Shown here in pieces: positions 2,829-57,226 of a DNA stretch of 57,226 bases. The stretch is from the NCBI GenBank assembly GCA_035494915.1, contig DATJGP010000135.1, positions 1 to 57,226 of the forward strand. The letters are read 5' to 3'. The DNA comes from Candidatus Eiseniibacteriota bacterium (GTDB lineage: Bacteria; Eisenbacteria; RBG-16-71-46; SZUA-252). Made by a program: the position numbers and the translations under genes. Numbering within the stretch: the stretch's first letter is position 1; the number at the start of each line of letters is the position of its first letter. The notes below the pieces were generated by a model. It was not told where the DNA came from. It did not search any database and saw only the letters and a program-made list of their open reading frames with translations.

Positions 2829-4334
2829 TCAGGACAGCCCGTAGAGCGGCCGGAACTTCCCTTCCAGGTACGCCATGTAGGGCTCGATCGTGAGCTCGCT
2901 CCCCGTCACCCGCTTCGTGAGCTCGGCCGGCGTGAACTTGGCGCCGTGGCGGTAGATGTTGTCCTTCAGCCAGTCGTGCAGGCCTCCGAAGGAGCCGCGC
3001 CGGATGTCCTCCGGGATCTCGGGGCGCGCCTTCACCGCGGTCCCGTAGAACTGCGCGGAGAGGATGTTCCCCAGCGTGTATCCCTGGAACTGGCCGCCGA
3101 TCAGACCGTGGTACCAGTGGACGTCCTGCAGCACGCCGTTCGTGTCGTCGGGCACGGCCACTCCCATCGACGCCTGGAACCGCTCGCGCCAGACGCGCGC
3201 CAGGTCCTTGACCGCGAGGTTTCCCTCGAGGAGATCGAGCTCCAGGTCGAAGCGGAGCATGACGTGGAGGTTGTACGTGGCCTCGTCGGCATCCGTGCGG
3301 ATCAGCGACCGCTCGACGCGGTTGATGGCGCGGTAGAACGCGTCGACGCTCACCGTGGCGAGATCGCGTCCGAAGGTCGCCTGCATGCGGGGAAGGAAGC
3401 ACTCCCAGAACCCCCGGCTCCGTCCCACCAGGTTTTCCCACAGGCGGGACTGGCTCTCGTGCACCCCTGAGGAGGCCCCGCCCGAGAGCGGTGTCCCCTC
3501 GAGCGCGGGATCGATGCCCATCTCGTACAGAGCGTGGCCGCACTCGTGGAGCGTGGAGAAGAGCGAGTCGGTGACGTCGTTGTCACGCGACCGCGTCGTG
3601 ATACGCACGTCGCCGTGCGCGAACTTCGTCATGAAGGGGTGGTGCGTCAGATCCTGCCGGCCGCGCGTGAAGTCGAATCCGAACGCCCGGATCACCTCGA
3701 GCCCGAACCGGAGCTGGGTCTCGAGCGGCACCGACTTCCGGACCGGCGAATCGTCGAGCTGGGGGCGGGCCGCGATCGCCTGCACCAGAGGCTCGAGCCG
3801 CCCGCCGAGCGCGTGGAAGAGCCGACGAATGTCGGCGGCCTTCATTCCATGGTCGTGCGTGTCGATCAGGGGATCGGCGATGTGATCGTAGCCGGGATGG
3901 CATTCGGCCGCGCGGCGCGACAGCTCGAGGGAGCGCTCGAGGTAGGGCCGCACCCGATCGAAATCGTTCGCCGGCTTCGCGACGGTCCAGGCCTGATAGC
4001 TGAGCGCCGCGTTCTCCTCGATCTCCGAGACGAGCGACGCGGGCATCCGGCGATCGCGGTCATAGCGGCGCCGCGTCAGCCGGATGAGCGACGCCTCGTC
4101 CGAATCGTAGGGGGCGGGCTCCGTCTCCTTGGCCGCGGCGTCGAGCAGCCGCCCCGTCTCCGCATCGATGAAGCTCTGGTGCGCGAGCCTCGAGAGCGTG
4201 GCCATCTGCCGTCCGCGCGCCGTGCCGCCGGCGGGAGGCATGTACGTCGTCTGGTCCCAGCTCAGCACGGCCGTGGCGCGTCGCAGATCATCGATCTCGG
4301 TGAGCCTTTGCTTCAGTTTCTGGAGCGCGTCCAT
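2829..4334 (-). CDS. Carboxypeptidase Taq, family M32 metallopeptidase
   Basis: Motifs LSWDQ, HPF, DVRITTR, HECGH (HEXXH), HESQSRLWEN, IRTDADE, QDVHW and YTLGN. Start placed at MDALQK. Confidence 0.95.
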   Translation of the reverse strand: MDALQKLKQRLTEIDDLRRATAVLSWDQTTYMPPAGGTARGRQMATLSRLAHQSFIDAETGRLLDAAAKETEPAPYDSDEASLIRLTRRRYDRDRRMPASLVSEIEENAALSYQAWTVAKPANDFDRVRPYLERSLELSRRAAECHPGYDHIADPLIDTHDHGMKAADIRRLFHALGGRLEPLVQAIAARPQLDDSPVRKSVPLETQLRFGLEVIRAFGFDFTRGRQDLTHHPFMTKFAHGDVRITTRSRDNDVTDSLFSTLHECGHALYEMGIDPALEGTPLSGGASSGVHESQSRLWENLVGRSRGFWECFLPRMQATFGRDLATVSVDAFYRAINRVERSLIRTDADEATYNLHVMLRFDLELDLLEGNLAVKDLARVWRERFQASMGVAVPDDTNGVLQDVHWYHGLIGGQFQGYTLGNILSAQFYGTAVKARPEIPEDIRRGSFGGLHDWLKDNIYRHGAKFTPAELTKRVTGSELTIEPYMAYLEGKFRPLYGLS

Positions 4335-51600: not shown

Positions 51601-52659
51601 GCGCGCATCCATCGCGACACACTGGAGAAGCTGCGCCGCGAGATCGAGCCCGTCACCGCCGCCGAGTTCTGGCGCTTCCTCACGTGCTGGCAGCACGCGG
51701 CCGACGGATATCGTCTCGAGGGACCGCGCGGGGTCGCCGAGGTCGTGCGGCAGCTCGCGGGATTCGAGATCGCCGCGGCCGAGTGGGAGGCGAGCGTCCT
51801 TCCGGCCCGCGTACAGGGATACCGGCAGGAATGGCTCGACCAGGTCACGCTCTCGGGCGAGATCGCGTGGGGACGGCTCTGGGGTGGAGGGCGCTCTCCG
51901 ATCCGGACCACGCCCCTCTGTCTCGTGCCGCGCGAGGACCTCGATCCCTGGCTCGCGCTCGCATCCGGGATCGCGGCGCCCGAGCCGTCGTTCGAAGAAA
52001 AGGGCGAGCCCGATGGATCGGAGCGGTCGTCCTACGCGGAAGTGCTGCTCGAGCTGCTCGACCGGAGCGGCGCCATGTTCACGCGCGATCTCGAGCGCCG
52101 CTCCGGCATGCTCCCATCCCACGTCGCGATGGGGCTCGCGGAGCTGATCGCGGCGGGGGCCATCACGTGCGACTCCTTTGGCGGCATCCGGCGCCTCGTC
52201 ACGCCGCCGAGCCGGCGTCGCGGCGTGATGAAGCACGCCGCGTTCACGCCCTCGGGCCGCTGGTCACGCCTCCGAGGATCGATGGCCGGATCCGCGAGAG
52301 CGGTGGATCCCGCGCTCGTCGAGTTCACGGCGACGCAGCTCCTCGCGCGCTACGGCGTGGTCTTCCGGCGCGTGCTCGATCGCGAGCGGATTCCGGTCCC
52401 CTGGCGGGATCTCGTGCGGGTCTATCGGCTCCGGGAATTGCGCGGCGACGTGCGCGGCGGACGGTTCGTGCAGCGGTTCGCGGGTGAGCAGTATGCGCTG
52501 CCGGAGGCCGTGGACCTCATGCGCCGGCTCAGGCGCGAGCGCGCGGACCGGGGCAAAGGACTCGTGGTTTCCGCGGCCGACCCGCTCAACCTGGACGGAA
52601 TCCTGACTCCGGAGCCGCGCGTTCCCGCGCAGGCTAGGCGGCAGGTGCTGGTGGCCTGA
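48619..52659 (+). CDS. lhr: Lhr-family ATP-dependent DEAD/DEAH helicase (long form)
   Basis: Motifs APTGTGKT, YVSPLKAL, VRTGDTP, TTPESL, DEIH, GLSAT, HHGSL, ASLELGIDIG, QRVGRSGH and HAPFGSRINRAWG; TATAAT at 48576-48581. Confidence 0.95.
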   Translation: MPLDFFHPAVRQWFLERVGTPSPPQTEGWPLIAGGKHTLVAAPTGTGKTLAAFLWALDGLLRQGAALPDQTLVLYVSPLKALGNDVRKNLDAPLRELEKRDPSFAAVRVLVRTGDTPASERASMTRKPPHILVTTPESLYILLTSQGGRAMLRTVRTVIVDEIHAMAGNKRGAHLALSLERLEALVEGPLQRIGLSATQKPVDEVARVLAGVGRECSIVDIGHRRDLDLAIEVPESPLATVCSHEQWDEIVARAAVLIQAHRTTLVFVNTRKLAERIAAKLTAVLGEDKVTSHHGSLARERRLEAERRLKAGELRALVATASLELGIDIGDVDLVVQIGETSSISVLLQRVGRSGHALGRTPKGRIFPLTQDQLVVAAALLDSVRRGELDRLHVPDRPLDILAQQVVAACVAETWEEAALHETFRRAWPYRRLERSEFDEVVRLHTQGRAALLHRDGVNDRLRATKRASITALTSGGAIPDTGQYRVVLEPEGTLVGSLDEDFAVEANGGDIFQLGNASWQILRVEPGVVRVSDARGAPPTIPFWLGEGPARTDELAAAVGRVREEGRDLRWLSEEAGVAPAAATQLAEYLEEGARALGAIPTPECVVLERFFDESGGMQLVVHAPFGSRINRAWGLALRKRFCRGFGFELQAAANEEAIVISLGPQHSFPLEDVFQFLHVDVARDLLVQALLDAPMFGTRWRWNLTRSLLVSRTQGGGKRVPTPLIRMRAEDELVRAFPSALACPETMPPGDLPVPWEHPLVRQTIEDCLHEAMDVDGFLEVLRGLRDGRIRRHAVDTREPSPFARGILNVMPYGFLDDSPLEERRTQAVSARRGLDPQIADTLGALDPDAVARVREQAWPEPESDEETHEALLWMGYVTEAEAEDSGWTEWIESLREGGRVVPFQSLEGPAWRAVETAVDPVALIRGRMEALGPVVILAEGEAPLRRAEDGARAVPFLPREAETALLQLEVEGSVLRCRIEARRAFCDRRLLARIHRDTLEKLRREIEPVTAAEFWRFLTCWQHAADGYRLEGPRGVAEVVRQLAGFEIAAAEWEASVLPARVQGYRQEWLDQVTLSGEIAWGRLWGGGRSPIRTTPLCLVPREDLDPWLALASGIAAPEPSFEEKGEPDGSERSSYAEVLLELLDRSGAMFTRDLERRSGMLPSHVAMGLAELIAAGAITCDSFGGIRRLVTPPSRRRGVMKHAAFTPSGRWSRLRGSMAGSARAVDPALVEFTATQLLARYGVVFRRVLDRERIPVPWRDLVRVYRLRELRGDVRGGRFVQRFAGEQYALPEAVDLMRRLRRERADRGKGLVVSAADPLNLDGILTPEPRVPAQARRQVLVA

Positions 52660-54160
52660 GCTTCGCGCGCATCGCGCGATCGACCTCCGCTCCCACGCGC
52701 GCCGAGATCTCGGGCACGGCGTCCACGTCGGCGGTCTGCGTGCGGAAGTTCACGATGCAGGCCCGCAGCACGTAGCGTCCCTCGACGATCGCATTCGAGA
52801 CGAAGATCTCCCCCTCTTCCTGCAGCCGCTCCAGGATCGCCTGGTTCAGCTCGTCCAGGTACCGCGCGACATCCTCTTCCTGCGCGCGCGCCTTGAGATC
52901 TTCGGGCAGGTAGCGGTAGGTGGCGATGCTCAAGACCTGCGTCGTGAGCTCGAGATCGGGGCGCCGGGCGATCGCCTCCGCCATCCGCTGCGAGAGGCGG
53001 ATGTCGTCCCCGATCATGCGGCGGTAGCCCGCGGCGCCCGCCTGGCGCAGCATCAGCCACACCTTGAGCGCACGGAACCCGCGGGAGTTCTGCGGGCCGA
53101 GATCGAGGAAGTTGATCGCTTCCTCGTCGAGATGATAGTAGGGCGGACGATACGAAAACGCGCTCCGGAGCCGCCCTGCCTCGCGGATCAGCGTGCATCC
53201 CGCTTCCAGCGGAGCGTACAGCCACTTGTGCGGATCCACCGCGATGGAATCCGCGGCGAAGAGCCCGCGCAGCGCGACGGGCGCATCGGGAAGCGCCGCG
53301 GCCAATCCGCCATAGGCGCCGTCGACGTGGAACCAGAGCCCCCGCTCGCGGCAGAACGCGGCGATCTCCGGGAGCGGATCGATCGCGCCGGTGCTCACCG
53401 ATCCGGCCGTGCCGACGACGAGGAACGGCTTGTCCCCCGCGGCCCGGTCCGCGTCCACCTGCGCGCGCAGCGCGTCCAGGTCCATGGTCTGGTCCCGCTT
53501 CACCGGGATCCATCGAACGGCCTGCTCGCCGATGCCGGAAAGATCGGCCGCCTTCTGGATCCAGGTGTGTGTCTCGGCGGATCCGTAGACGCGGAGCATC
53601 GGCCCCGCCGCCACGCCCTTGGCGCGCACCGGCCAGTCCGCCTGCGCGGCGCGCGCGGCGTAGAACGCGACGATGTTGGCCATGTTGCCGCCGCTCACGA
53701 GGATTCCTTCGGCCGCCGGGAATCCGATCAGCTCCGCGATCCAGCGAAGGGTTTGCGCCTCGATCTCCGTGGCCGCGGGAGAAAGAACCCAGCCCCCGAC
53801 GTTCGGATTGGCGGAGGCGGCGAGGAGATCGCCGAGCATTCCGATGGGAGCGGGCGAGGCCGTGATGTAGCCGAAGAAGCGCGGGTGGCCGTTGAAGAGC
53901 GAATGGTCGAAGAGCTTCCGGGCCGTCTCCTCGAGGAGCGCGCCGCCGTCCATTCCCGCCTCGGGGAGCGGTCCGTTCAGATCGAGTGCGTCCCGCACCT
54001 CGGATGGCGTCTCGCCCGGCGTCACCGGACGGGACGGAACCGAATCGAGGAGCGATGCGATCTGGTCGACGAGCGCGTGTCCCCAGCTCCGGAACGTGGC
54101 GGAGTCGATCGCGAGCGGCGCGTCGCGGCGCGGCCCTGGATCGTCGCGCTTCACGGTCAT
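52634..54160 (-). CDS. Group II PLP-dependent decarboxylase (aromatic amino acid / glutamate decarboxylase family)
   Basis: Motifs HPRFFGYI, SGGNMAN, GTAGSVSTGAIDP, HVDGAYGG and DPHKWL (PLP Lys). Confidence 0.94.
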   Translation of the reverse strand: MTVKRDDPGPRRDAPLAIDSATFRSWGHALVDQIASLLDSVPSRPVTPGETPSEVRDALDLNGPLPEAGMDGGALLEETARKLFDHSLFNGHPRFFGYITASPAPIGMLGDLLAASANPNVGGWVLSPAATEIEAQTLRWIAELIGFPAAEGILVSGGNMANIVAFYAARAAQADWPVRAKGVAAGPMLRVYGSAETHTWIQKAADLSGIGEQAVRWIPVKRDQTMDLDALRAQVDADRAAGDKPFLVVGTAGSVSTGAIDPLPEIAAFCRERGLWFHVDGAYGGLAAALPDAPVALRGLFAADSIAVDPHKWLYAPLEAGCTLIREAGRLRSAFSYRPPYYHLDEEAINFLDLGPQNSRGFRALKVWLMLRQAGAAGYRRMIGDDIRLSQRMAEAIARRPDLELTTQVLSIATYRYLPEDLKARAQEEDVARYLDELNQAILERLQEEGEIFVSNAIVEGRYVLRACIVNFRTQTADVDAVPEISARVGAEVDRAMRAKLRPPAPAA

Positions 54161-54999
54161 CGAAGTCCCTCGAAGAGATCGCGCTCCTTGGCGCGGCCTC
54201 CGTTCACGGTGCTGAGCGCCCGATAGAACTCCTGCGCGCCCCAGAGCGCCCGGTGGCGCTCGGGGTCGAGGTCCTTCAGCTGGTCGTAGACCGCGATCTG
54301 CGAATCGTGGCAGGAGACCGCCTTCCACGCGACCTCCCAGTGCTTCGTCGTGTCGACGAGCGTCGTGATTTCCCATTCTGGCCATGCGTGCGCCACGCGC
54401 TCCACGCCGTCGACGGTGGACGCGAGACGCTTGAAGGCGTGCTGGTAAACCTCCCAGCGCGCCGGCGAGTTCACCATGTAGTAGAGCTTCGACACCGAGT
54501 GCGGCGCGCCCGCGGGATCCGTCGCGTGCGCGGAGTCAGCCGCGGCGAGGACCGCCGCCGTGGTGAACTGGCAGATCGCGATGTGGTCCGGGTGGCCATA
54601 GGCGCCGTCGGGCGGGAACGTGAGCACGACGTGCGGCCGCACGGCGCGGATGCGTCCCGCGATCCGGCCCACGATCTCGCGCGGGTCCGCCTGGTCCAGC
54701 GCCCCGTCGTGGTACCCGAGGAGCCACAATCCACGGATCCCGAGCACCTGGGCGGCACACCGCACCTCGGCCTCCCGGATCTCGCCCAGCCGCTCCCGTC
54801 CGGGGTGGCCGGGGCCCTCCCGATGCTCGTGGTACCGCCCCCCCTCGCCGCGCGTGGCCGTGACGAGGGAGACCTCCACGCCCTCGGCTGCGTACTTCGC
54901 GAGCACGCCTCCCACGCCGAGCGACTCGTCATCGGGATGCGCGAGCACCGCCATGAGGCGGAGCGGAGCGGGTTTGCCGTCCTGGAGTGGGGGGCACAT
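54157..54999 (-). CDS. PIG-L family deacetylase (MshB/Mca/BshB-like)
   Basis: Motifs AHPDDES, TATRGEGG, YGHPDH and CHDSQ. The start could instead be at 54954. Confidence 0.92.
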   Translation of the reverse strand: MCPPLQDGKPAPLRLMAVLAHPDDESLGVGGVLAKYAAEGVEVSLVTATRGEGGRYHEHREGPGHPGRERLGEIREAEVRCAAQVLGIRGLWLLGYHDGALDQADPREIVGRIAGRIRAVRPHVVLTFPPDGAYGHPDHIAICQFTTAAVLAAADSAHATDPAGAPHSVSKLYYMVNSPARWEVYQHAFKRLASTVDGVERVAHAWPEWEITTLVDTTKHWEVAWKAVSCHDSQIAVYDQLKDLDPERHRALWGAQEFYRALSTVNGGRAKERDLFEGLR

Positions 55000-55091
55000 G
55001 GAACGGAGGAGGATACACGGAAAGGCGTTCTTGCGCTCGCCTCCGAAGGGCGTACGCTGAAAGGAGCGCCAGCCTGGGATGGGAGGTCGTC

Positions 55092-55661
55092 ATGGCCACG
55101 ATTCCATGGATCCGGGACGTCGACGCCGCACTCGCCAAGGCGGTGTCGGAAGGGAAGCCCGTTCTCCTGGATTTCAGCGCCGCACCGATGTGAAGCGGGT
55201 GTGCCCGGCTGGAAGCCGAGGTCTACCCCGATGAGCGCATCGCGCGGTTCATCACCGAGAATTTCATCCCCGCCAAGGCCCACGTGAAGGATCAGCCCGA
55301 TACCTTCCGCCGGTTTGGCGCGCCCTGGACCCCGACGCAGCTCGTGCTGGACGAGTCGGGCAAGGAGCGCTATCGGATCGAAGGGTTCCTGCCCGCCGAG
55401 GATTTTCTGGCCCAGCTCAAGATGGCGCTCGGCCGGCTCGCGTTCGAGAGCGAGCGCTTCCGCGAAGCGGAGCAGCGGTTCCTCAACGTGTGTCGCGAGC
55501 ACCCGGAGGCCACCTCGGCGCCGGAGGCTTGCTACTGGCGGGGTGTCAGCGAGTACAAGGAGAAGCACGAACCATCGCCGCTCAAGGAGACCGCCGAGTT
55601 CCTCATGAATCGGTATCCGGAGAGCGAGTGGACCAAGAAGGCGTCGGTCTGGGCAGGATGA
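55092..55661 (+). CDS. Thioredoxin-fold selenoprotein (UxxC) with a C-terminal TPR region; TGA 55191-55193 read as Sec
   Basis: GGAGG SD and ATG at 55092. The reading is KPVLLDFSAAPM-TGA-SGCARLEAEVY...WTPT...RIEGFLP, in one frame with tracked ORF 55284-55661. Confidence 0.88.
55197..55228 (+). promoter_or_regulatory. Candidate bacterial SECIS element
   Basis: Hairpin starting 3 nt after the TGA: gggtg/taccc, gcc/ggt, a bulged A, cggct/agccg, and apical loop GGA beginning 17 nt after the UGA. Confidence 0.7.
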
Positions 55662-55741
55662 GCCGGCCGCGCTGAAGCCCGCACGGGCCGGAGGGCCCGC
55701 GCGCGACAACGAGGGCGTCACGCCGCGAGGCGGGGCGTCCT

Positions 55742-56965
55742 CTACTCGTAACGGAGCGCGATGATGGGATCGAGGCTCGCCGCGCGCCGCGCGGGCCAGA
55801 CCCCGAACAGGATGCCGACCGCCGCGGCGAAGATGAACGAGACCACGATCGAGAAGGGATCGACCGACGTGGTCCAGCCGAAGGCGACGCGGAGCATCGT
55901 CGCCATGCCGGCGCCGAGCAGGATGCCGGCAATGCCTCCGAGGAGACAGAGCACGACCGCCTCGATCAGGAACTGGAGGAGGATGTTGGCGCGGGTCGCG
56001 CCGAGCGCCTTCCGGATCCCGATCTCCCGCGTCCGCTCCGTCACCGAGACGAGCATGATGTTCATGATGCCGATCCCCCCCACGAGGAGGCTCACCGCGG
56101 CGATGCCGGCGAGGAGGAGCGTGAACACCTGCGTGGTCTCGCCGAGGGTCGTGAGGAAGTCGGCCTGGCTCCGGATCACGAAGTCGTCCGGGGCCCCCGA
56201 GCGGAGCCGGTGCTCGCGGCGGAGGATGCGCTGCACGTCGGCCATCGCGTTCGGGATCTCGTCCTCCGATGGAGCGAGCACGTTGATGGAGCGCAGGCGG
56301 TCGGTGCCGAAGAGCCGGAAGCGCGCCGTCTCGATGGGGATCAGCACCTGATCGTCGGGGTTGTTGAACCCGCCCCCGGTCCCCTTCGACGCGAGCACGC
56401 CGACGACTGTGAACTGGATGCTGCCGATCCGGACCGGCTCGCCGATCAGCGCCTCGGGCGCCGTGATGCCGAGATCGCTCGCCACCTGGGATCCGAGCAC
56501 CGCCACGCGCCGCCGCGCGTCGTTGTCCGCGTCCGTGAACATGGCGCCCGCGCCGATCGTGAAGTTCCGGACCTCGGGGTAGTTGGCGGTCACACCGGAG
56601 ATCGAGGTGTTCGTGTTCTGGTTCAGGTACTGGACCTGGAACTGCCGGGTCATCTCGGGCTGGATGCCCCCGAGAACCGTCGAGCGGCGCTCGAGCGCGT
56701 CGGCGTCGTCCATCGTGAGGATGGAGCGATCCGTGCCGGAGGCGATGCCGCCGGGGCCGCGCGCCGACGTGGGCATGACGGTGAGGAGCGTCGTGCCGAG
56801 GGACGCGATCCGCGCCTTCACCGAGGCCTGCGCCCCGCGTCCGAGGGCCACCATGGCGATGACCGCGGCCACGCCGATCACGACGCCGAGCATGGTGAGG
56901 AACGAACGAAGCTTGTTCGCGCGGAGCGCCGCGAGCGCGACCGCGAGGATCTCGTGGACGATCAT
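55742..56965 (-). CDS. MacB/FtsX-like ABC transporter permease
   Basis: 'NKLRSFLTMLGVVIGVAAVI' and 'SLLVGGIGIMNIMLVSVTERTREIGIRKALGA'. Confidence 0.95.
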   Translation of the reverse strand: MIVHEILAVALAALRANKLRSFLTMLGVVIGVAAVIAMVALGRGAQASVKARIASLGTTLLTVMPTSARGPGGIASGTDRSILTMDDADALERRSTVLGGIQPEMTRQFQVQYLNQNTNTSISGVTANYPEVRNFTIGAGAMFTDADNDARRRVAVLGSQVASDLGITAPEALIGEPVRIGSIQFTVVGVLASKGTGGGFNNPDDQVLIPIETARFRLFGTDRLRSINVLAPSEDEIPNAMADVQRILRREHRLRSGAPDDFVIRSQADFLTTLGETTQVFTLLLAGIAAVSLLVGGIGIMNIMLVSVTERTREIGIRKALGATRANILLQFLIEAVVLCLLGGIAGILLGAGMATMLRVAFGWTTSVDPFSIVVSFIFAAAVGILFGVWPARRAASLDPIIALRYE

Positions 56966-56966
56966 G

Positions 56967-57226
56967 CTACCGCCCTCCTCCGCCACCCCCGCGCCCACCG
57001 CCACCGCTGCCTCCGCCACCACCAGCACCGCCGCGGCCTCCGCCGCCTCCGGTGCCTCCGGTGCCCGGAACGCCGAGGCCGCCGCCCATTCGCTGGCGGA
57101 TGTTCTGCATGCTCTGCTCGCGCTGCATCTGGAGCGTGGCCGCGCTCAAGAGGGCGACCTGCTCTCCTTCTTGTAGACCCGAGAGAACCTGGGCGTAGTC
57201 GTAGTTGGAGACGCCGATCCGGACCA
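56967..57226 (-). CDS. C-terminus of a MacA-like periplasmic adaptor subunit (partial), with a Gly-rich tail
   Basis: Open frame 'VRIGVSNYDYAQVLSGLQEGEQV' followed by a poly-Gly tail, directly upstream of the MacB-like permease. Confidence 0.8.
   Translation of the reverse strand, partial: VRIGVSNYDYAQVLSGLQEGEQVALLSAATLQMQREQSMQNIRQRMGGGLGVPGTGGTGGGGGRGGAGGGGGSGGGGRGGGGGGR

Follow-up and report, generated by a model that had tools for sequence, protein, structure and literature searches.

Towards the 3' end of the window (the whole stretch of DNA analysed here, 57,226 nt), the list of open reading frames contains two ORFs on the + strand, at 54987-55193 (68 aa) and at 55284-55661 (125 aa), which are in a common frame because they are offset by 297 nt. 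From the ATG at 55092 to the TGA at 55659-55661, the TGA at 55191-55193 is the sole internal stop; reading of the frame thus bears out the original observation that a single TGA interrupts it. When TGA is translated as U, a 189-aa protein is obtained, MATIPW...DFSAAPM-U-SGCARLEAEVY...WTPT...RIEGFLP..., and translation places U at codon 34, in the position of the first Cys of a CxxC motif, as had been proposed. We are highly confident, judging from the sequence comparisons described below, that 55092-55661 (+) is one intact gene encoding a predicted selenoprotein of 189 residues. Its features are the following.

55081-55086, + strand: Shine-Dalgarno-like GGGAGG, 5 nt 5' of the ATG, read from the sequence
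55092-55661, + strand: predicted selenoprotein gene, 189 codons including Sec34, followed by the stop TGA 55659-55661; orthologues are 52-95% identical
55092-55391, + strand: thioredoxin-fold domain (residues 1-100) of the DsbD-gamma / Thioredoxin_2 / Thioredoxin_7 type, without a signal peptide
55191-55193, + strand: in-frame UGA, predicted Sec34, first position of the U-S-G-C redox motif
55197-55228, + strand: SECIS-type hairpin, with a lower stem 55197-55200/55225-55228, an upper stem 55204-55210/55214-55220 and an apical loop GGA 55211-55213
55200-55202, + strand: TGT codon of Cys37, resolving cysteine in the U-x-x-C motif; the residue does not vary among the 33 aligned sequences
55326-55334, + strand: W79-T80-P81, putative cis-proline loop facing the active site, invariant in 33/33 sequences
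55392-55658, + strand: all-helical TPR-like domain (residues 101-189) with five helices, from the AlphaFold secondary structure, VIA-align and the profile search

The gene stands alone, between a diverging gene for a PIG-L family deacetylase upstream and a converging gene for a MacB-type permease downstream, and a promoter and terminator scan of 54900-55800 found none. On the - strand at 52634-54999, an ORF for a PLP-dependent decarboxylase (52634-54385) adjoins that of the PIG-L family deacetylase (54157-54999); as these longest-start ORFs overlap by about 230 nt, the start of one or the other is probably further in. Just upstream of the permease gene, another ORF on the - strand (56967-57224) runs off the end of the window; the protein it encodes finishes with a long tail of low complexity, rich in Gly and Arg (..GGGGRGGAGGGGGSGGGG..).

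An in-frame TGA can of course mark a nonsense pseudogene, or be an assembly or sequencing error for TGC or TGT, and two observations agree with such a reading: standard gene calling splits the frame, and the gene is sometimes lost, as 6 of the 9 genomes from its genus have no orthologue. A search of the genome itself and of 60 related genomes recovered full-length orthologues in 11 of the 60 (E 1e-66 or better, 52-95% identity), each with exactly one internal TGA; this TGA is found at the identical column, within AAPxU[SG]GCARLEAEVYP, in the gene itself and in 11/11 orthologues. The residues 5' of the TGA are also conserved: I4, W6, D11, L14, L25, D27, F28, A30, A31 and P32 are invariant in the 12 sequences, and in the confidently predicted fold they make up the first strand and helix. 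As for an error, a contig of 1240 nt assembled from a different soil run covers 54900-55800 and differs there by one deletion and four substitutions, with the TGA intact, and two contigs from RNA libraries (524 and 311 nt, from two metatranscriptome runs with two study codes) bridge an unchanged TGA, carried-over DNA being possible in both cases. The 524-nt contig corresponds to 55131-55654 and is on its own no proof of a transcript. Since the contigs from other runs keep the TGA, assembly error is excluded; the TGC or TGT expected in the reads under that explanation appears neither in the independent DNA assembly nor in the two RNA-library contigs. With the TGA also kept in 48 of 49 loci of the wider scan below, and with a hairpin with frozen synonymous sites that a pseudogene would not hold, we regard a pseudogene or an error as extremely improbable. 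The patchy distribution of the gene (3/9 genomes of the genus, 11/60 relatives) indicates that it is dispensable.

We extended the comparison with a wider scan of one genome per species, which returned 63 loci, partly from genomes already in the 60-genome search, 49 of them covering the active site. TGA was present in 48 of these 49; the remaining locus, from an uncultured Geobacter MAG, has Cys (CIAC). The scan did not favour TGA, since one of its two search patterns had Cys at this column. Members were found in Eisenbacteria, Acidobacteriota, Verrucomicrobiia, Dormiibacterota, Binatia, Thermodesulfobacteriota and others, the nearest relatives of the window protein (95% and 88% identity) being Candidatus Eisenbacteria. 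In the Geobacteraceae, 40 matches with TGA and 20 without were spread over 54 of the 81 genomes sampled, 34 of which have the TGA form; of the 20 loci without TGA, one did not fit the motif and is not counted for Cys, and the column is Cys in all 19 that could be parsed. Cys or U (TGA) is thus what homologues carry at this position in the related genomes, in the wider loci and in the Geobacteraceae, as anticipated for a selenoprotein. Several genomes, namely G062 (the genome of locus L075) and the Geobacteraceae G065, G068, G084, G089 and G103, have the family in two or three copies, all with a TGA of their own. We also observed that many otherwise divergent soil and rhizosphere contigs align to the window only at 55173-55232, over 40-60 nt and at 90% identity or more; this short stretch comprises the active site, the TGA and the hairpin, and the loose ends upstream of it read VLLDFSAAPA. 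The SECIS core is thus conserved across organisms in its nucleotide sequence.

Protein databases give quite another picture of the family. The active-site motif is absent from 214 of the 240 homologues listed, nearly all of which begin 3' of the TGA, which agrees with the claim that gene callers split the gene. In the others the residue at the Sec column is W (19), Cys (4), R (1), S (1) or a misaligned P (1). The shortened homologues go by the names “TolA-binding protein”, “TPR repeat protein” or “BamD”, and their called starts vary, giving proteins of 105-176 aa. Two full-length relatives (P0021 and P0022) have Arg and Ser at the Sec column; CGA (Arg) and TCA (Ser) are each one base from TGA, and these residues could be real substitutions or errors. 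A second search of the protein database, with a Syntrophaceae query, gave no record naming Syntrophus or Geobacter among the matches listed.

Taken at face value, the shortened form called in 214 of the 240 listed homologues would fit two separate products, a 33-residue peptide ending at the TGA and a TPR protein starting downstream, for example at the GTG at 55284. Such a protein, however, would start halfway through the thioredoxin fold and would lack the active site, the first strand and the first helix; its called starts are inconsistent from one homologue to another, whereas Cys forms are called at full length, and conservation is continuous across the TGA. We therefore find this arrangement very unlikely.

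Selenocysteine insertion calls for a dedicated machinery, and the original prediction implied that the host has selA, selB, selC and selD. The genome (97% complete, in 247 contigs) indeed contains them all above curated cut-offs: tRNA-Sec with anticodon TCA (68.7 bits against a cut-off of 47), selB (376 against 242, on contig C82), selA (395 against 268, split over two contig ends) and selD (357 against 125, with one in-frame TGA of its own). The two selA fragments are on contig C192 (3-872) and contig C80 (5-619) and cover model positions 1-294 and 250-454, which is most simply explained by an assembly break rather than by a broken gene. The selD gene is on contig C197 (23691-24819; loci L019, L001 and L151) with tRNA-Sec about 110 nt downstream, and, its in-frame TGA being located at the motif SCAGUAAK, SelD is itself a predicted selenoprotein. 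Contig C28 contains a second thioredoxin-TPR ORF (about 3013-3940; locus L150, 614 to about 1540, +) of about 308 aa in all. Its single in-frame TGA is read within DFYTDWUSWC, its N-terminus resembles that of a lipoprotein (..LVGAC) and its TPR tail is longer; similar ORFs of about 300-330 aa with one TGA occur in most of the related genomes. From its sequence, this ORF looks like an exported paralogue of the window gene. As the window gene, selD and the ORF on contig C28 all carry a TGA, the organism has at least three candidate selenoproteins.

The W found at the Sec column in 19 of the 240 listed homologues might suggest that UGA is decoded otherwise, either by a near-cognate tRNA that inserts Trp or Cys or under a reassigned code. 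These W residues presumably come from gene callers that read TGA under a Trp code on short contigs. Against such a decoding, TGA is also the terminal stop of the gene itself, and 5 of the 12 orthologue sequences end in TGA, so that these genomes do use TGA as a stop; all of the Sec machinery is present; the forms without TGA have Cys, and a genomic TGG was never seen among the loci examined; and the hairpin co-occurs with the TGA and is lost in the Cys forms. A non-Sec decoding is, in our opinion, very improbable.

A G-led, imperfect hairpin had been proposed 3 nt after the TGA. It is present at 55197-55228, beginning 3 nt past the TGA, with a distance of 20 nt between the U of UGA and the start of its GGA loop. 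The bSECISearch method reportedly asks for a stem-loop immediately 3' of the UGA whose apical loop contains a G and lies at a distance of some 16-37 nt; both the position of the hairpin and its G-containing loop agree with these criteria. In single-sequence folding the expected hairpin does form, at -31.9 kcal/mol, but it is no more stable than shuffled sequences (z -1.76; 13 of 200 shuffles as stable). Taken alone, the window hairpin is indistinguishable from chance, and its support comes from the relatives. The second pair of the upper stem is a C.A mismatch in the window's genus, and the same mismatch occurs in seven rows of the alignment overall. A scan of 54000-57226 against Rfam (E up to 10) gave no match at the hairpin and three chance-level matches elsewhere.

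In the relatives, codons +5 to +9 (CGG CTG GAA GCC GAG), whose 15 nt make up most of the upper stem and the loop, are each represented by a single codon in 12/12 sequences, while the gene's other invariant Arg, Leu and Ala columns use 2-5 codons in the same 12 sequences. We then aligned 50 rows without gaps from the TGA onward and scored the structure that we had specified: 88.8% of the cells are paired, against 25-50% with slid partners, double changes occur in four pairs, and none of 500 shuffles equals the covariation score. The hairpin is thus conserved in register and covaries. In the Syntrophaceae branch, the peptide is UIGCQQLAAV, yet a 7-bp stem and a GGN loop occupy the same columns; between the window type and the Syntrophaceae (ARLEAE -> QQLAAV), the stem exchanges are CG->AU, UA->AU and GC->AU. 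Because most exchanges separate two clades, the independent compensatory events are few. Seven rows of the alignment have an alternative hairpin a few bases further 3'. The Geobacter-type alternative hairpin is paired in 95% of cells in 33 Sec forms, with an AU->GC exchange, and in only 57% in 19 Cys forms, with slid controls at 22-71%; the stem-loop therefore accompanies the UGA and decays without it.

The thioredoxin fold that had been proposed for the read-through protein was confirmed by Pfam, with Thioredoxin_2 (PF13098) at 1.3e-13 and 51.7 bits and Thioredoxin_7 (PF13899) at 1.5e-09 and 38.3 bits, both against a cut-off of 27, and Thioredox_DsbH also above its cut-off, as well as by the structure. 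The AlphaFold model, built from the 33-sequence alignment (pLDDT 97, pTM 0.91), consists of a thioredoxin fold from residue 1 to about 100 followed by five helices (102-187), with U34-S-G-C37 at the start of helix 35-44. Column 34 (U), C37, W79, T80 and P81 are invariant in 33/33 sequences; W79-T80-P81 would be the cis-Pro loop of the thioredoxin fold. The thioredoxin part is nearest to DsbH-type proteins and to the C-terminal domain of DsbD; Foldseek matched the latter at E 4e-07, with about 30% identity and, for some 118 aligned columns, an rmsd of 2.8-3.0, and the profile search against the PDB found DsbD (5e-13) and the TPR of YbgF/CpoB (1.2e-10 and 4.6e-10). The TPR tail was the other part of the proposed architecture. 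The TPR families of Pfam remain below threshold for the single sequence (TPR_16, 16.5 bits against 32.7), and the tail is established instead by the YbgF profile match at 1.2e-10 and by superposition on BamD; VIA-align of the tail gave BamD at Z 14.2 (rmsd 1.8, 89 residues aligned), the YbgF TPR at Z 13.1, YfgM at Z 12.4 and a designed TPR at Z 10.5. As the sequence starts directly with the fold, with no hydrophobic leader, a cytoplasmic location is the most likely one for the window protein.

A conserved UGA, a covarying hairpin, the Sec machinery and a U-x-x-C thioredoxin fold all agree with the original proposal of a Sec-containing oxidoreductase, which we keep as a prediction. As the ribosome meets the UGA at 55191-55193, the hairpin at 55197-55228 would recruit SelB with Sec-tRNA(Sec), and selenocysteine would then be inserted rather than translation terminated; this SelB-dependent insertion of Sec34 is proposed on the model of the established bacterial Sec pathway, of which the UGA, the hairpin and the machinery were shown here. 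In the folded protein, Sec34 would most likely be exposed and act as the nucleophile towards a client, either at a disulfide or at some other oxidised form of sulfur or selenium; Cys37 would resolve the mixed intermediate into an internal selenylsulfide, from which a cellular thiol-reducing system could recycle the protein. The TPR domain, a putative partner-binding module, would most likely keep a particular client or partner near the active site. Such a protein would be a targeted reductase or a redox adaptor, not a general thioredoxin.

Genes next to the family members do not tell more about this client. An all-against-all comparison of the flanking ORFs of 50 loci found nothing in common beyond close relatives. 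One cluster of flanking ORFs from 35 loci was considered as a conserved neighbour and rejected, as it was made of antisense or overlapping ORFs. When 38 of the flanking ORFs, taken from 17 loci, were scanned with Pfam, the functions were unrelated and the only two redox neighbours were a VKOR-AhpC-redoxin fusion (L049) and a DsbA-like protein (L085). No neighbouring gene being conserved across phyla, the neighbours give no functional clue.

Several known systems resemble the window protein in part. The C-terminal (gamma) domain of DsbD and the Thioredoxin_7/DsbH types have the thioredoxin fold and the position of the active site in common with it; DsbD-gamma, however, is a periplasmic domain of a membrane electron transporter and has CxxC, whereas the window protein is soluble, without a signal peptide, with a predicted Sec and with a TPR domain attached. 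CnoX/YbbN is a “chaperedoxin”. It has a common architecture with the window protein, an N-terminal thioredoxin-like domain followed by TPR in one soluble polypeptide (PDB 3qou, 3qdn), but is without the Sec predicted at position 34. Foldseek aligns about 200 columns of it over both domains at an rmsd of 11 Å and a TM of 0.43-0.45, values that indicate a different arrangement of the domains; VIA-align matches the thioredoxin domain only of 3qdn (Z 10.7, residues 2-114), and CnoX/YbbN is absent from the best 60 of 203 profile matches. YbgF/CpoB and BamD are periplasmic envelope proteins whose likeness to the window protein is at the level of the TPR domain only. The resemblance of the tail to their TPR accounts for the misleading names “TolA-binding protein” and “BamD” in databases. 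Among the selenoprotein models of NCBIfam, the VPGUxxT thioredoxin-like types 1 and 2, TsoB and Trx7/PDZ gave weak matches to the thioredoxin domain (20-38.5 bits), whose scores fall well short of the 275-805 bits set as cut-offs; none of 33 family members reached any NCBIfam cut-off, the best E-value being 2.2e-17 for the DsbD-like end of TsoB.

The gene had also been described as hidden. This is true for annotation and does not hold for science, since the family is very probably a catalogued family of predicted selenoproteins. A “thiol:disulfide interchange protein” selenoprotein family was predicted in 2004 in Syntrophus and Geobacter, and a 2006 paper (PMC1794560, Table 3) gives it in Syntrophus aciditrophicus, Geobacter metallireducens and G. 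uraniumreducens; in the part of a review that concerns it, this family is without an NCBIfam model. According to the passages of these sources that deal with it, the catalogued family has the same top Pfam family (PF13098) and the UxxC motif, and its taxa are ones in which the window family is abundant as a TGA form (Syntrophaceae, Geobacteraceae); an NCBIfam model is lacking both for it, in the same passages, and for the window family, of which 33 members were tested. Those passages make no mention of a TPR tail or of a cytoplasmic location. The name given in 2004 would be explained by the nearest solved relatives, which are named “thiol:disulfide interchange protein DsbD”. We consider it likely that the window family is this catalogued “thiol:disulfide interchange protein”, a match made through the Pfam family, the motif and the taxa and not through a reference sequence. 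Between the Eisenbacteria branch, with AAPxU[SG]GCARLEAEVYP, and the Syntrophaceae/Geobacter branch, identity is only about 40%.

Our searches of the literature, by title and abstract, found no bacterial thioredoxin-TPR selenoprotein, and nothing on Eisenbacteria and selenocysteine. The terms “TPR”, “TolA”, “BamD” and “disulfide interchange” are absent from the main text of PMC13326102 and PMC12013277, whose supplements may list the family, and PMC1914089 does not mention it, although its supplementary tables may list it. With a small but real chance, the window family could be an undescribed “chaperedoxin-like” class, cytoplasmic and nearly obligate in its Sec, in which a TPR clamp would present one client to the selenol; such a class would extend over at least half a dozen phyla and, in Eisenbacteria, would be paired with the lipoprotein-anchored thioredoxin-TPR selenoprotein, one inside and one outside the membrane.

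Under the reading that we prefer, that of the catalogued family, the window gene adds a member from a little-studied soil phylum to a known kind of bacterial selenoprotein. The family appears to be widespread and almost always in the Sec form, on the sequences sampled. The gene is mis-annotated nearly everywhere; a dedicated family model would correct many records and would enlarge the range of selenoproteins known from Eisenbacteria and other soil phyla. For the evolution of SECIS elements, three hairpin variants at one place constitute a natural experiment, and the Geobacteraceae, with Sec and Cys forms side by side, are useful for SECIS comparison. The combination of a thioredoxin fold and TPR with a predicted Sec in 48 of the 49 sampled loci suggests a demanding and specific redox task, and Geobacter offers a tractable host for finding the client of the family.
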